Virus genome (UHGV): UHGV-0180141 | DNA length: 20,019 nucleotides | Direction: 5' to 3' (one strand) | From: a virus | In this document: piece by piece, positions 13,052-20,019 of the stretch | Position numbering within the stretch: position 1 is the stretch's first letter | How the letters are laid out: each line of letters begins with the position of its first letter | Made by a program: the position numbers and the translations under genes | The notes under the pieces: generated by a model | Seen by the model: the letters and a program-made list of their open reading frames with translations, nothing else | Database searches by the model: none | What the model was told of the DNA's origin: nothing

Positions 13052-15787
13052 ATGGCTAATTACCGTGATTTGTTAGAGCAGGCTGGCGCACGTTACGGTG
13101 TGCCAGAAGGGTTGATGACTGCACTGGGTGCCAAGGAGTCTTCTTACAACCCTGCCGCAGTAAGCTCCGCCGGGGCTGTAGGATTGACTCAGGTCATGCC
13201 TGGGACATGGCGTGATATGGGTTATACCGATGAGCAAATGCAAAACCCCGAATATCAGGCTGACGCTGGCGCGCGCTATCTGGCAAAGATGTACCAGCAG
13301 TTTGGTAACTGGCGTGACGCTCTTCAGGCTTATCACGACGGCCCCGGCAACGTTATGAAGGCAAAGCGTGGTGAATATACGCCAGGACCTGAAGGCCGCG
13401 GTTACGTTGATGATCGCTTTGCTCAATGGGCGGGTGACCCGGTGACAGACTCAACAGTCGAACAGCGCGCCACCTCTGCAAAGGTACATCCTCAGCAAGA
13501 CCCTAACAACCCGTTTGCACAACTGGAAGCACAGTCATCCGAACAAGTATCGGCATCAGGCGTGCAGTCAGACCCAAATAATCCATTTGCTCAGATTGAG
13601 CAGCAGGCAGCCAGTCAGCAGCCACCTCAACCCGTAAGTTCTGTCGCACCGAAACCTGTTCAGCAACAAACAGTTAATCAGGCCAATAATGCACCAACAC
13701 GGGAAGAACCATCATTGATGCAACAAGCTGGTGATTGGCTCACAGGTGGTCAAAGTGCAGGGCAAATTGCAGAGCAGGCTGGTCGTGGTCTGGTAAACAT
13801 ACCATTTGACGTATTGCAGGGTGGCGCAAGTCTGATTAATGCAATCAGCCAGGGGCTTGGTGGCCCCAAGGTTTTGGACGATGTCTATCGTCCAGTAGAT
13901 CGACCGACAGACCCTTATGCGCAAGCTGGAGAGTCAATAGGCGGTTATCTTGTTCCTGGAGCAGGAGTAGCTGGAAACATGGTCATTGGTTCTCTCGCTG
14001 ACGCGGCGAATCAACGGGGTGATTTTGCCGAAAATGCCGCTATTAATGCCGGACTTAACATTGCTACGCATGGCCTGATAAATGGCGTTACCCGTGGTGT
14101 TCGTGGCGCATCAAATATAATTAGTGGCAATAAAACATCTGCACAGAGAGCGACCACTGCGCCAACAGAAACATCACCATTCTCCGGTGATGCCGCTGCA
14201 GCAACAAATCCTGCGGTTCATGCCGCAGAGGCAAGAGCAGCACAAGGTGTACCAATGACGCCTGCGGCGAGGGACCCAGAGGAGGTCGTTCGCACAGTAG
14301 CAGCACAAAAAAGGCCAAATCTCGCTTCATCGCTTGATGAACTAGATATCAATCCTCAGGCTGAAGTTCTGGAGTCTGCTGAAAGGCTTAATGTTGATTC
14401 ATTACTCCCTTCACACTTTTCCGGGAACGAGCAATACAAGGCAGTTGAGCAAGCAATCAAGTCCCGTGCGGGTTCTGCTCTACGGGTGCAGGAAAATGAA
14501 GCAATCAGGCAACTAGCACAGGGCGCGGGGGAGATAATTGATCGCGTTTCCGGTGCAAAAGATGCTCTTGGTATGAGCGACAAGTTTATTGATACGATCA
14601 ATGGAAGAATGTCTGCGCTGATGAAACGAAGCGACCAGCTTTATCGCAATGTTGAAAAGGCGATGCCTGCAGGTGCAAAAATTGATGCGCCATCAACAAG
14701 GTCAATGCTCAAACAGGTGGCAGAAGATCTTGGCGGGATGAAAAACCTTGACCCTATTGAAAAGAGAGTCTTTCGGGCAGTTAATCCAGGCAAGAACGGC
14801 GCATTAACTTATGCAAATCTCAATAAGCAACGACGACTTGTTGGTGATGCACTTCATAAGAAGTCTGGACCATATAAAGATGCTGATCGCGCTGCTTTAT
14901 CGAGGCTTTACGGTTCGCTCGCCGATGATCAAAAGGCGGCGCTGTCAGAGACAAATGCATTACGTGATTTTGAAGTTGCTCAGAGGCTTGTTCAGATGCG
15001 AAAAAGCATGGAAGAGCAAATGATTAATCTAACTGGCAGAACACTGAACGGTGATGTTTCTCGCAAAGCAACTACAGCACTACAGGCAATGTCGAAAGGC
15101 GATGCCAAAGGATTTCGTGAATTGATGCAAAACACGCCGTCCAGGAAGCTAAGAACCGAGCTACTGGGAACAGGTCTTCGGGATATGCTTTCGAACGGAA
15201 AACGTGGCGCTGATTTTAATCCTGCAGGGTTTGCTGACTGGTATCAAAACATGTTAGCAAACGGGCAGATGCGCAATCTTGCCCGACATTTACCAAAAGA
15301 GACTATGTCAGGTCTGAACGATGTATATAAGGTCGCAAAGGCTATCAAAGACGCAAAATCTTACGAGATAACTACAGGAAGACTAAACGAGTTCGTCAAA
15401 CGGTTTAATCGCGTCACTGCGGCAAATGAATTTGTTGCTAACCATGCCCAACGCATTGGCACTGCGGTTGGTTCAACTGTGTCAGGACCGTTCAGTGCAG
15501 TAGGTGCTGTTGCTGGGTCAGAAATTGGGGCAAAAGTCGCCAGCAAAATCAGGGCGATGGGCGGCGCTGAATCAATTGAATCTGCAGAAAAGCTAATTAG
15601 CTCACCAGAATTCCAGAAAGCAGCAAGGCTGGCAGTAAAACAAGCACCAGAAAGCATCGTTGATACAACTGTAAGACGCTCTTCTGCTTGGCGCTCGTTT
15701 TACAACTCACTTCCAGAATCAGATAAGAAAACCATATCAAGGCTAGGCATCATGTACTGGATGAACAGTGATGATAACCAGAAGTAA
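13052..15787 (+). CDS. ejection protein (P22 gp16-like) with N-terminal lytic transglycosylase (SLT) domain
   Basis: 911 aa. N-terminal ~110 aa carries SLT-like motifs ([10 protein letters not shown] with candidate catalytic Glu, [19 protein letters not shown]); then a Q/P-rich linker with a tandem DPNNPFAQ(L/I)E repeat, then a long helical/Ala-Gly-rich body. Last gene of the plus-strand string, start abutting the gp20-like stop. Confidence 0.85.
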
Positions 15788-15804: not shown

Positions 15805-15888
15805 TTAGTTGCTGTCTTTTTTATATAAATCTCTGAGCGTATCAAAGACAATTTTCTTTACCATATCGGATTGTTGGTCTGCAATACG
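15805..15888 (-). pseudogene. remnant of the 3' end of a P22-type mnt gene (C-terminal ~27 codons only)
   Basis: Minus-strand translation gives ...RIADQQSDMVKKIVFDTLRDLYKKDSN*, closely matching the P22 Mnt C-terminus (...RLADEQSELVKKMVFDTLKDLYKKTT, from memory). No Mnt-like N-terminal region upstream in any frame. The frame is continuous with the lipoprotein ORF stop at 15976-15978. Confidence 0.5.
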
Positions 15889-15975
15889 CGATGCTATTGG
15901 TAGCGATGAATTCAATCGCTTGTCGAGAGCTGGTATTGTCGCCTCGTTAAGCGGTATGAATGAATATGAATAGCT

Positions 15976-16461
15976 TTATCTAATGTTGCTGCTACTGTTG
16001 CATGTGACGGTATTTCCAAATCCTGAATTGCAGTTTGTATATGTGTCAACGCGCGTTGGGTAAGGTTGAGTTATAACAGGCTGGCGCGCTTTTTGCTCGA
16101 TCGCTTGCATTGTGTTTACAGCCTGATAATTCAATAAAGCCTGCTGGAATGCTTGGCTTTGTGCTATTTGTTGGGCTTGTTCTTGGCTTTGTAATTGAAC
16201 ATAAAGATTCTGAAGCTCAAGTCTTGCCTGCGCGTCACTTATCTTGCCATCATCGACACCTTGCCCGAGCATCTTCGCAGCAAGGACATATAACTTAGGT
16301 GTTGGTGCTGATGCCATGCGTGAGTCGTTCTTCACACTGGCATCAAGGCAATTAGCCATATCGCTAAGCTTTGGATAGCGTTGCTCGCAACTTGCCTGAT
16401 AGTCGCTTACTTTTGCGCACCCAGCCAGCAGAAGCGGGATAATTAACAGTGATTTTTTCAT
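15976..16461 (-). CDS. predicted lipoprotein (161 aa) of unknown function; possible superinfection-exclusion moron
   Basis: Start chosen at internal ATG (rc of 16459-16461) giving MKKSLLIIPLLLAGC..., a signal peptide with lipobox LAGC; strong RBS TAAGGAGAG 8 nt upstream. Mature part is Q-rich/helical with a Cys-containing C-terminus. The track ORF extends 17 codons upstream to 16512 without an RBS. Confidence 0.72.
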   Translation of the reverse strand: MKKSLLIIPLLLAGCAKVSDYQASCEQRYPKLSDMANCLDASVKNDSRMASAPTPKLYVLAAKMLGQGVDDGKISDAQARLELQNLYVQLQSQEQAQQIAQSQAFQQALLNYQAVNTMQAIEQKARQPVITQPYPTRVDTYTNCNSGFGNTVTCNSSSNIR

Positions 16462-16495
16462 ATAATTAACTCTCCTTAGTTTTGCGCAGGATACC

Positions 16496-16861
16496 ATGAA
16501 AAAAGTTAACATTGGAAACGTACCAAAGATGCTCGTTCCGCTCTTTGAGAGCGGTACAATTGTGTTTTGTAGAGACTTTCCAGAATGGCAACGCCTGCAT
16601 CAAAAACTTGGCGTTGACGTGCATGACTCGGACGCCAACGGAGCGTCTCATACAATGAGCAGCGAGAATGGTGTTTTGCATGTGATAGGCGTGTTCAATG
16701 GCAAACTATCTACTATTGCCCATGAGTGCGCTCACATGGCATTCGATATCTGCTCAAGGGTCGGCGTTGATGTTGAACCAGGAAGAGCCAACGAGACTTA
16801 CTGCTACTTAATGAGCAGGCTTGTTGAGTTCTGCGAGCGACATATCAAAAAGCCGGAGTGA
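16496..16861 (+). CDS. small HExxH-motif protein (121 aa), putative ImmA/IrrE-like zinc metallopeptidase
   Basis: Contains ...VLHVIGVFNGKLSTIAHECAHMAFD..., fitting the (F/T)(I/L)AHE..H pattern of M78/ImmA-type peptidases, with candidate third ligands (Glu/Asp) downstream. AGGA 5 nt upstream of ATG; divergent from the lipoprotein gene with only 34 bp between start codons. Confidence 0.6.
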   Translation: MKKVNIGNVPKMLVPLFESGTIVFCRDFPEWQRLHQKLGVDVHDSDANGASHTMSSENGVLHVIGVFNGKLSTIAHECAHMAFDICSRVGVDVEPGRANETYCYLMSRLVEFCERHIKKPE

Positions 16862-16872
16862 CCCGGCTTGAT
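16851..16872. terminator. putative bidirectional terminator between convergent genes
   Basis: Hairpin AGCCGG-agtgac-CCGGCT (16851-16868) with T-rich sequence on both strands; overlaps the stop codon of the HExxH gene. Confidence 0.45.
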
Positions 16873-16874
16873 TA

Positions 16875-17054
16875 TTACTTTTTGCTGTCTGGAGTTCGCT
16901 TATCCAATACCCAGCCATGACCTGGCTTTGTTGTTGGTGGAAGCCTTTCATTGTCCTTGACGGTGGCAAAATTGTCTTTCTTACCGCCGCGTGGGCCAAC
17001 TTCTTGGTATATTCCGCCGTTTTTTCCCGTGTTTTCACCTGGTTTTTTCGCCAT
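16875..17054 (-). CDS. hypothetical small Gly/Lys-rich protein (59 aa)
   Basis: Start at internal ATG (rc of 17052-17054) giving MAKKPGENTGKNGGIYQEVGPRGGKKDNFATVKDNERLPPTTKPGHGWVLDKRTPDSKK, with RBS GAGGT 6 nt upstream; terminator hairpin downstream; candidate sigma70 -35 TTGACT (rc of 17114-17119) upstream. Confidence 0.45.
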   Translation of the reverse strand: MAKKPGENTGKNGGIYQEVGPRGGKKDNFATVKDNERLPPTTKPGHGWVLDKRTPDSKK

Positions 17055-17144
17055 GATATACCTCAACATGCACCCGTTATTGGGCGATTAAATATTGATC
17101 TCATTTTATAAGTAGTCAATATGGCCCAGGTAAATGCAAAAATT

Positions 17145-17168
17145 AACCCACCGTCAGGTGGGTTTTTT
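17145..17168. terminator. putative bidirectional rho-independent terminator at the 3' end of the mnt-like gene
   Basis: Hairpin AACCCACC-gtca-GGTGGGTT (17145-17164) followed by TTTTTT on the plus strand and by TTAATTTTTGCATTT on the minus strand; the mnt-like stop codon lies in the loop. Confidence 0.55.
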
Positions 17169-17474
17169 GTTTAGCAGTTCTCTCAACTTTTCGTTCTGCT
17201 CTCTGAACTTTTCCTGTATTTCTTTTTGCATGGCGATAACCTGGGCTTGAAGTTGAACTAGCGCATCAACATTTAGCGGAACCGAGACGCTGTTGATTTT
17301 GTCTGCTATTTCCCCAAGAGTATTTTCTGCATTCAAGGCATCTTCCAGTATCTGCACAATCTCTGAGTTCATAGAGCGCCCGTTTCGTTTGGCTCTCTCC
17401 GCAATCGCGTCCCTCATCCCGTCAGGGAAACGCACAACAAACTTTTCGTAATCTTTAACCTGCTTTTCAGCCAT
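17154..17474 (-). CDS. mnt: Mnt-like ribbon-helix-helix repressor (106 aa)
   Basis: N-terminus KFVVRFPDGMRDAIAERAKRNGRSMNSEIVQILEDAL matches the Arc/Mnt RHH fold signature (NGRS(M/V)NSE); helical C-terminal extension; GAGGTG RBS 5 nt upstream; divergent from the arc-like gene as in P22 immI. Confidence 0.8.
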   Translation of the reverse strand: MAEKQVKDYEKFVVRFPDGMRDAIAERAKRNGRSMNSEIVQILEDALNAENTLGEIADKINSVSVPLNVDALVQLQAQVIAMQKEIQEKFREQNEKLRELLNKKPT

Positions 17475-17576: not shown

Positions 17577-17738
17577 ATGGAAAAGAATGAAGTGAAGACA
17601 ACTCTTCGGTATCCGTACCGTTTTAAGGAGGAGGTGAAACGCATCGCTAAGGAAGAGGGGATGTCAGAAAACTCAGTGTTGGTTCAGGGACTTGCTTGGT
17701 GGTTGAAGTACCGGGAGAAAATGCGGAATGCTCTCTAA
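17577..17738 (+). CDS. arc: Arc-like ribbon-helix-helix repressor (53 aa)
   Basis: Hand translation MEKNEVKTTLRYPYRFKEEVKRIAKEEGMSENSVLVQGLAWWLKYREKMRNAL; 53 aa as in P22 Arc, with an RHH-like beta-strand/helix pattern; AAAGGAG RBS 6 nt upstream; directly upstream of ant. Below the ORF-track size cutoff. Confidence 0.72.
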   Translation: MEKNEVKTTLRYPYRFKEEVKRIAKEEGMSENSVLVQGLAWWLKYREKMRNAL

Positions 17739-18706: not shown

Positions 18707-18729
18707 ACCCAGCTTCGGCTGGGTTTTTA
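18707..18729 (+). terminator. rho-independent terminator after ant
   Basis: Hairpin CCCAGC-ttcg-GCTGGG (18708-18723) followed by TTTTT. Confidence 0.6.
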
Positions 18730-18786
18730 TGTCCAAAATTCACCGTAGCCATGCTTTGGCGATTCCTTGTATCTGGAGTAAATTAA

Positions 18787-20019
18787 ATGACAGACATTAC
18801 AGCTAATGTGATTGTATCGATGCCTTCGCAACTCTTCACTATGGCGCGTTCTTTTAAAGCCGTAGCCAATGGCAAAATTTATATCGGTAAAATTGATACT
18901 GACCCGGTAAATCCTGAAAACCAGATTCCGGTTTATGTAGAGAACGAAGACGGTTCTCACGTTCCTGTTTCTCAACCAATCATTATTAACGCTGCTGGTT
19001 ACCCGGTATATAACGGACAGATTGCCAAGTTCGTTACTGTACAGGGCCATTCTATGGCTGTTTACGATGCGTATGGGGCACAGCAGTTTTATTTTCCAAA
19101 TGTGCTGAAGTATGATCCGGATCAGCTAAGACATGAGCTAGCGTCGGAAGCGGGAACAACTTTAATAGGGAAGGGTGATCGAACTCTTGAAGAGTACTTA
19201 GAATCAAGCAAGGAAGATTTTGATAACTCATGGAAGAGATATGTAGGTAAATCTACAACGACACAAAAAGATAGCGCATACTCTGGAGCAGCTCACTACC
19301 AACCAGTTAGCGATGATGGGAGCACAATTGGTAATTATACATTTGAATCACCGGTGATTGTTGACTTCTCATCTACATCAGATTGTGTTATGCCAGATTC
19401 TGGTGTCGTTTTCAAAATGGGAGCTAATGGACTTACAAGTGGTAATTATTTTTCTCAAGATAATTACCACTTAAAAAATGTAACGGCAATTGGCGGTACC
19501 CCTGAAATTGTTACATTTGAACCATACACAGGATTGACAGCACTAGTAGATGGTGTTCGTATTATAAATAATGGCTCTCCAGACAAGACCGCTATTAATT
19601 TTAAAGGACAGAACTGGTGGCCTACAGTATCTAATAATATATTTAAAGATTATACAGATAAAAGAGGAAATTTTTGCAAGGCAATAGATGACGGAGGAGA
19701 TTCATCTATAAGAAGGAGTGGGAATAGTAGATTGCTTTTCACTGGAAATAAAGTCTACTTTGGTGGGGATGCTCTTGGTGGTACGATGTTGAAAGCCAGC
19801 GCTGTCTTTAATATTATAAAAGATAATGCCTGTGAACACGGAGAGAACGCGATTGTGTTTGAGTACCCATCATCATTCTCAGTTATCGACGGACTTTACA
19901 CAGAATGTTCTTTTGGTGGTGGTAATCAGATAGTAATTGGTGACAAAGAACCTGATCCTAATATTGCAACAATGAATATGATTGGAATAACTATTAAGAA
20001 TGTTTATTTCAATAATCAT
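18787..20019 (+). CDS. tailspike protein (P22 gp9-like head-binding domain plus divergent receptor-binding domain), 3'-truncated by window end
   Basis: N-terminus [50 protein letters not shown]...VLKYDPDQ closely matches the P22 tailspike N-terminal domain as recalled; after about residue 110 the sequence is unrelated and AT-rich; GGAG RBS upstream; no stop before the window end. Confidence 0.9.

Follow-up and report, generated by a model that had tools for sequence, protein, structure and literature searches.

The window considered here is a 20,019-nucleotide stretch of viral DNA (UHGV virus genome UHGV-0180141), and the gene of interest within it is hkcC, an open reading frame at 16,496–16,861 on the plus strand. 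Judging from its sequence and a structural model, the 121-residue product, HkcC, is probably a minimal gluzincin-type metallopeptidase. The gene begins with ATG, 4 nt downstream of an AGGA Shine-Dalgarno sequence (16,488–16,491), and the protein contains, in this order, the segments VLHVIGVF, NGKLS and TIAHECAHMAF; the reading frame and the residues quoted in the initial annotation were thus confirmed exactly. A second small gene, orf59a, converges on hkcC, and the two genes and their signals are arranged as follows.

16,468–16,495, no strand: conserved junction of 28 nt, containing the hkcC Shine-Dalgarno sequence and, on the opposite strand, an AAGGAG for the divergent leftward gene
16,496–16,861, plus strand: hkcC, 121 codons plus stop (open reading frame list), predicted stand-alone mini-gluzincin
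16,721–16,735, plus strand: codons for H76-E77-C78-A79-H80, the two proposed zinc ligands and proposed catalytic base, on helix 71–88
16,790–16,807, plus strand: codons for N99-E100-T101-Y102-C103-Y104, with E100 the proposed third zinc ligand and Y104 a conserved aromatic residue
16,850–16,869, scored on both strands by the terminator scan: hairpin between hkcC and orf59a, overlapping the hkcC stop codon
16,875–17,054, minus strand: orf59a, 59 aa, basic, weakly YjzC-like, PHROG 3202
17,091–17,119, minus strand: sigma-70-like promoter of orf59a (TTGACT, 17 nt, AATATT) from a consensus scan

hkcC is a real gene that has long had a name, though no assigned function. HkcC is 99% identical to the product of hkcC in coliphage HK620, to its P22 equivalent and to the counterparts in dozens of P22-like phages (megablast, tblastn). 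The gene has been listed as "unknown" in the P22 genome since the HK620 record appeared (AF335538, 2001), and two genome papers count hkcC and gene 59a among the genes of unknown function in the "ant moron" (PMC2629481; PMC4837284). HkcC matches PHROG 1365, to which no function is assigned, at E=1.7e-39, with residues 1–121 aligned to profile positions 3–120 of 127. Searches of Pfam (E<=10), NCBIfam and PADLOC gave no usable match, and several "lantibiotic" matches (E=0.03–0.14) were dismissed as noise from the HEC...C stretch. Among 5,426 complete Escherichia coli genomes, part of the block formed by the adjacent lipoprotein gene, hkcC and orf59a occurs in 298 and the whole block in 19; in the eight best-matching records, its genes are labelled "hypothetical protein". 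When hkcC is compared with homologues of 56–78% identity, synonymous divergence (dS) is saturated and nonsynonymous divergence (dN) is 0.15–0.5, which identifies it as a real gene under purifying selection. A second hkcC paralogue, of the kind found after Rz in ST64T and epsilon34, was sought in the window and not found.

The family around HkcC is large. A profile search (E<=1e-3) collected 546 clusters at 50% identity, most of them stand-alone, single-domain proteins of 110–140 aa. In an alignment of 139 relatives reaching down to ~24% identity, only H76, E77 and H80 are invariant, and E100, Y104, G49 and G90 are conserved in at least 90%. A census of 177 collected relatives found HExxH in 170; of the seven without it, six are fragments or result from frameshifts or fusions, and the seventh is P0134, a protein of 110 aa. 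The chance of an HExxH arising in 121 residues is estimated at ~0.3–0.4% and, given the invariance of its three defining residues, the motif is no coincidence. Closer to HkcC, 18 full-length homologues (down to 43% identity) retain HECAH, G96, N99-E100-T101 and several cysteines. The interval from the second histidine to the glutamate is 20 residues in 93 of the 139 motif occurrences with a downstream [N/S/G]-E-[T/A/P], so that the commonest form is HExxH-x19-E, usually with Asn preceding E100. This is the spacing of thermolysin, which also has the Asn-Glu pair common to most members of the HkcC family.

The cysteine within HECAH, which had been flagged as atypical, is indeed there, but it is a subfamily trait: 70 of the 170 relatives carry Cys at this position and the others L, A, I, V, S, M, T or F, which argues that it is no catalytic feature. 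Chemistry of the peptide-deformylase kind (HExxH plus Cys) was likewise rejected, as the cysteines vary across the wider family. A separate observation concerns the C-terminus. About six of the 170 relatives (P0063, P0067, P0116, P0133 and P0150 among them) carry Lys-rich tails, either Lys/Ala/Pro-rich or Lys/Glu-rich (e.g., KPKKASKPKAKP), which resemble nucleic-acid-binding tails; HkcC has none.

An AlphaFold2 model of HkcC, built from the 18-sequence alignment, reached a pLDDT of 89 and a pTM of 0.83. Its elements follow the order strand 11–13, strand 21–25, helix 28–37, strands 49–56 and 59–66, helix 71–88 and helix 100–116. This layout of sheet, backing helix, active-site helix and glutamate helix is, in the model, zincin-like: HExxH lies on an alpha-helix (71–88) that follows a beta-sheet with an edge strand (strands 49–56 and 59–66), and the conserved glutamate E100, the predicted third ligand, opens the next helix. 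A sequence-profile search of the PDB with HkcC returned no match at E<=10, and a Foldseek search of the model against the PDB returned none at E<=0.001. Against a library of viral models, Foldseek gave 26 matches at E<=1e-3, all of them phage proteins and mostly without a name; their sources include N4-like, T7-like, jumbo and crAss-like phages. Two of the 26 carry the name "SprT-like" (E=5.6e-5 and 4.4e-4), and a "Metalloprotease" comes just beyond that cut-off (E=1.3e-3); proteins named IrrE appeared at E ~0.03 at best.

From this arrangement, a conventional gluzincin chemistry can be proposed. A Zn2+ ion would have H76 and H80 of the active-site helix as two of its ligands and E100, with which the following helix opens, as the third. 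E77 would act as the base that activates water, and the substrate backbone would bind, as it does in other zincins, along the strand pair 49–66 that immediately precedes the active-site helix. In size (~110–120 aa) and in its predicted beta-sheet with backing helix, HExxH helix and glutamate helix, HkcC resembles minimal gluzincins and thermolysin-type enzymes, and it shares the HExxH-x19-(N)E spacing of thermolysin itself. Comparable minimal enzymes are the 114-aa "zincin-like" protein 3e11 and minigluzincins such as proabylysin. Our conclusion, drawn from sequence and model, is that HkcC represents a family of its own inside the zincin/gluzincin superfamily.

The second finding, and a new point, is that hkcC and orf59a constitute a conserved, convergent and mobile two-gene cassette. 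The similarity between the window and P22 or HK620 in this region is limited to 16,468–17,170, exactly hkcC plus orf59a, and its left boundary coincides with the start of the 28-nt junction (megablast). A set of 80 IMG/VR loci, all with a near-identical hkcC and informative for its flanks only, has a convergent 59-aa gene 4–14 nt from hkcC in 69 cases. Among more divergent contexts, orf59a lies beside hkcC in five of six (the near-duplicates L093 and L094 counted once), on both podovirus and siphovirus backbones. Copies of orf59a, with upstream sequence where included, lie at L008 6384–6629, L010 6377–6619, L093 5347–5526, L095 1010–1189 and L096 5378–5557. Between divergent copies, orf59a is better conserved than hkcC (75–85% versus 56–63% identity), with saturated synonymous sites and an omega of 0.03–0.16 where computable. 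Its similarity to YjzC (PF14168, E=0.0017) falls below the threshold. The pairing has exceptions: some Gram-positive phages have YjzC-family genes but lack hkcC, and the paralogue group named for orf129 lacks orf59a.

The regulatory signals of the two genes differ. The promoter predicted for orf59a stands at the same offset in the window, L008 and L010 (promoter scans); in seven aligned upstream regions, the -10 element AATATT is present in all seven and a TTGA-type -35 element in six (GTGAGG in L096). Both elements fall inside an inverted repeat of 7 bp (ATATTGA, 17 nt, TCAATAT), after which comes a conserved GCC(C/T)AA-TA motif, and the repeat and motif could be an operator or leader element. 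The hairpin that separates the two genes falls in the region annotated as t mnt in P22 and tORF59A in HK620, whose coordinates overlap without being identical; an equivalent hairpin occurs in L010, and one is visible in L093, L008 and L096. On these sequence signals, orf59a is probably an autonomous, lysogen-expressed moron transcribed against the late operon. For hkcC, no conserved sequence was found upstream beyond the 28 nt in the compared loci, and a strong plus-strand terminator precedes its start by ~25 nt in L008 and L096. From the end of gene 16 (15,787) to hkcC, the terminator scan of the window found no terminator on the plus strand. In P22, the late transcript that gp23 antiterminates runs on through the immI region and reaches gene 9. 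Taken together, the missing hkcC promoter, the missing terminator after gene 16 and the course of late transcription in P22 suggest that HkcC would be made late in the lytic cycle.

A partial parallel to this gene pair is known from Listeria, in which a phage-derived metzincin is paired with a TIMP-like inhibitor (PMC8235301). As in the hkcC/orf59a cassette, a metalloprotease of phage origin is kept with a small partner protein. Unlike HkcC, the Listeria enzyme is a secreted, XRE-regulated metzincin, and HkcC and Orf59a are known as a pair from gene arrangement alone.

The distribution of hkcC bears directly on its possible targets. The gene lies between gene 16 and the tailspike gene in all 80 near-identical loci, and at least 13 of these have hkcC while mnt, arc and ant are absent; HK620 likewise retains hkcC and orf59a with only remnants of mnt and ant. 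The upstream gene varies across the 80 loci (lipoprotein, sieA, hkcB or none detected), and the Mnt-type neighbour changes from locus to locus, with hkcC constant at ~99% identity. Homologues of 56–63% identity occur in siphovirus-type prophages of Klebsiella oxytoca, Rosenbergiella and metagenomes, placed between the tail-tube/chaperone genes and the tape-measure gene. Further relatives follow the lysis genes in the lambdoid phage mEp044 and the T7-like Ralstonia phage RSJ2, and another heads a cluster of small genes in the N4-like phage phCDa. This spread over podoviruses, siphoviruses and virulent phages means that HkcC cannot be dedicated to Mnt or Arc. The suggestion that it acts on these repressors is thus contradicted by the loci in which hkcC is kept without mnt, arc and ant, by its siphovirus-prophage homologues and by its relatives in virulent phages, and such a role is unlikely.

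A paralogue of 38–40% identity is represented by orf-129 of ST64T, Orf129 of phage L and gene 70 of epsilon34. Its place is the interval from Rz to the small terminase gene, which it shares with a DUF2560 gene and a Dec-like decoration gene; the three small genes come in different orders in different phages (ST64T, L003 3141–4294; 80 IMG/VR loci, L098–L177). In mEp044 too, the relative that follows Rz is a paralogue, and the RSJ2 relative has the same position. In ST160, SE1, UAB_Phi20 and Phi75, two places match HkcC, consistent with the presence of hkcC and the paralogue together.

Outside the cassette, the neighbours are those described in the initial annotation, namely a lipoprotein gene, ribbon-helix-helix repressor genes and an antirepressor.

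13,052–15,787, plus strand: gene-16-type protein, 911 aa, in the ejection-protein position
15,976–16,464, minus strand: lipoprotein gene, with the real start MKKSLLIIPLLLAGC at 16,464, lipobox LLAGC, PHROG 6067, no Pfam match
17,154–17,474, minus strand: Arc-family gene in the Mnt position, 106 aa, PHROG 1287
17,577–17,738, plus strand: Arc-family gene, 53 aa, ribbon-helix-helix
17,810–18,688, no strand listed: Bro-N/P22_AR_C antirepressor
from 18,787, plus strand: start of the tailspike gene, with a head-binding domain 75% identical to the N-terminus of P22 gp9

The locus is the same as that of hkcC in HK620 and P22, between gene 16 and the tailspike gene with orf59a and the same terminator alongside, and the remainder of the window is a P22-like late operon. 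It differs from them in two respects: where they have sieA or hkcB, it has a lipoprotein gene, and its Mnt-type repressor, an Arc-family protein of 106 aa, is not the same as theirs. The lipoprotein slot is occupied by sieA in P22, hkcB in HK620, a Rap1a-like gene in L095 and a ClpP-like gene in L097. In the P22 annotation, the genes in this slot are driven by the leftward promoter PsieA, which lies inside the first 30 nt of hkcC. The slot seems to be a hot spot at which exclusion or defence genes expressed by the prophage collect, and it is context for the cassette rather than part of it.

On the other side, the 106-aa Arc-family protein is ~48% identical to P22 Mnt over 42 residues, and its gene has a bidirectional terminator hairpin of its own (17,145–17,164). 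The low identity indicates that the window and P22 have different alleles of the immI repressor set, despite the ~98% DNA identity of hkcC and orf59a. Several further observations concern the surroundings. The gene-16-type protein opens with an SLT lytic transglycosylase domain (PF01464, E=3e-25) and has 911 residues, compared with 609 in P22 gp16, which suggests an ejection protein with a built-in peptidoglycan-cutting domain. Just 3' of gene 16, a 26-codon remnant (15,817–15,894, minus strand) is 73% identical to part of P22 Mnt and is what earlier recombination left behind in this mosaic stretch. A 107-aa reading frame at 18,727–19,050 (minus strand) was set aside as almost certainly spurious, as it overlaps the head-binding domain of the plus-strand tailspike gene.

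The interpretation that we favour, and that we regard as reasonably probable, is that HkcC is the uncharacterised founder of a large, phage-borne family of stand-alone minimal gluzincins and serves as an accessory lytic protease, not as an ImmA-like enzyme. In this proposal, hkcC would be read only by antiterminated late transcription running from gene 16 towards the tailspike gene, and orf59a, facing the opposite way, would be transcribed from its own conserved promoter and end at the shared hairpin. During lytic growth, HkcC would cut a specific cytoplasmic protein of the host, or a protein of a competing element, and its activity would amount to an accessory function in host takeover or counter-defence. 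A comparable reading has been offered for the patchily distributed SprT-like and ArdC-like zincins of jumbo phages, which were interpreted as host-directed (PMC7824862) in agreement with the present proposal. Several points weigh against it. The assembly of H76, H80 and E100 into a single site is predicted from their order and conservation, not from side-chain geometry; substrate and expression timing are deduced only from gene order and consensus scans; and hkcC is dispensable in many P22-like phages. In addition, no functional study of hkcC, orf59a, YjzC, or a phage SprT-like or anti-defence metalloprotease was found in the literature.

Two alternatives would assign HkcC to an established metalloprotease family. 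The initial annotation likened it to the ImmA/IrrE-type peptidases (M78), in which case it would be an anti-repressor protease that cleaves Mnt, Arc or the C2 repressor and thereby flips immI or triggers induction. The metallopeptidase half of that claim is supported by the motif conservation and the zincin-like model, but the M78 half is not. PF06114 (Peptidase_M78) gave no match to HkcC at E<=10 and lies outside the 25 most-matched of the 49 families hit by the 139 members at E<=1, the other 24 being matched by at most one member each; a positive control of the same size, Sfi21 orf122, scored 52.3 bits. With hhalign, the family profile aligned to Sfi21 orf122, alone or with 120 relatives, at a probability of 9–15% over 14–16 columns, the HExxH helix only, and this helix is the extent of the HMM or profile similarity to the M78 enzymes (Bacillus subtilis ImmA, Deinococcus radiodurans IrrE, CapP of CBASS and orf122). 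The glutamate of M78 enzymes belongs to an E-x-x-A-N motif later in the sequence, whereas HkcC has its Asn-Glu pair 20 residues after the second histidine. The remark that the usual helix-turn-helix partner is missing proved correct: no XRE-type gene stands beside hkcC in the window, where the neighbours are the lipoprotein gene, orf59a and the Arc-family genes, and no helix-turn-helix gene was found at the other hkcC loci, at which a repressor gene is often absent too. Nor does the distribution set out above, with its siphovirus tail modules, virulent phages, loci without mnt, arc and ant, and varying Mnt-type gene beside a nearly constant hkcC, show any link to lysogeny switches. Of all the readings considered, we hold this one to be the least probable. 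The other candidate is SprT, which would make HkcC a SprT/Spartan-like, DNA-dependent protease that removes DNA-bound or cross-linked proteins of the phage or the host. PF10263, which stands for the SprT-like, Spartan and Wss1 zincins, is the sole recurrent Pfam signal in the HkcC family (weak in 34 of 139 members, best E=1e-4, none for HkcC itself), and it is also the closest label in the viral fold search. The hhalign comparison with E. coli SprT extends over 79–81 columns including the strands before the helix, and the Lys-rich tails of a few relatives point the same way. Yet every SprT-like match lies below the gathering score of 25.6 bits, the one inspected (P0170) covers ~30 residues around HExxH at 12 bits, and the hhalign probability is 4–15%. 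As the template profiles for both M78 and SprT were shallow (relatives >=75–82% identical), these hhalign values give no ranking of the two families. In SprT and SPRTN, the third zinc ligand is a histidine shortly after HExxH, often accompanied by a C-terminal zinc ribbon. The HkcC family has no conserved histidine after H80 in its alignment and conserves E100 instead, and HkcC has neither the zinc ribbon seen in E. coli SprT (PF17283) nor a DNA-binding module or basic tail. An assignment to this family is accordingly improbable.

The remaining alternatives concern the purpose of the gene. HkcC could be a prophage defence or exclusion effector that, in the manner of Lit, answers infection by a competitor by cleaving either a host factor that is essential or a protein of the incoming phage. 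The e14 prophage supplies a precedent in Lit, which belongs to the HExxH proteases, and hkcC lies in a hot spot whose upstream slot holds sieA, hkcB, a lipoprotein gene, or a Rap1a-like or ClpP-like gene. Against this, PADLOC gave no match, relatives occur in virulent N4-like and T7-like phages, and hkcC is promoterless and, in L008 and L096, preceded by a terminator, an arrangement that fits lytic better than lysogenic expression; we consider a defence role unlikely, though the least so of the four alternatives. It could also be supposed that HkcC has no enzymatic importance of its own, being a zinc-binding scaffold or a non-peptidase hydrolase, and that the DNA of hkcC is kept as the carrier of PsieA and the shared terminator. 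The position of PsieA in the P22 record accords with this view, as does the lack of any reported activity. The catalytic-type residues are nevertheless invariant over 139 sequences, within a family of hundreds of clusters that includes contexts without a leftward gene, and the protein is under strong purifying selection. This makes the supposition very improbable.

A more specific extension of the favoured reading, namely that of an accessory lytic gluzincin, takes the pairing with orf59a as functional. Here, HkcC and Orf59a would be a reciprocally expressed two-gene module, with Orf59a made in the lysogen and HkcC late, by transcription running antisense through orf59a. HkcC might then remove Orf59a, or whatever Orf59a sets up, and so lift a block, expressed by the prophage, on the late development of the phage; in another version, Orf59a might hold a possibly toxic protease in check up to the time of lysis. 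We regard such a module as a speculative idea and an unlikely one. If true, it would be a new kind of switch between a phage protease and its partner, mobile between the late operons of podoviruses and siphoviruses.

For phage biology, the analysis provides a large, phage-specific protein family with a type member in P22, a textbook and extremely tractable phage. It also removes a tempting but wrong annotation that tied HkcC to ImmA/IrrE and to Arc and Mnt, and it singles out the hkcC–orf59a pairing as the point most worth testing. Few phage proteases are known so far to cleave proteins of the host or of a rival, and a family of hundreds of clusters in temperate and virulent phages alike could hide a common host-takeover or counter-defence activity.
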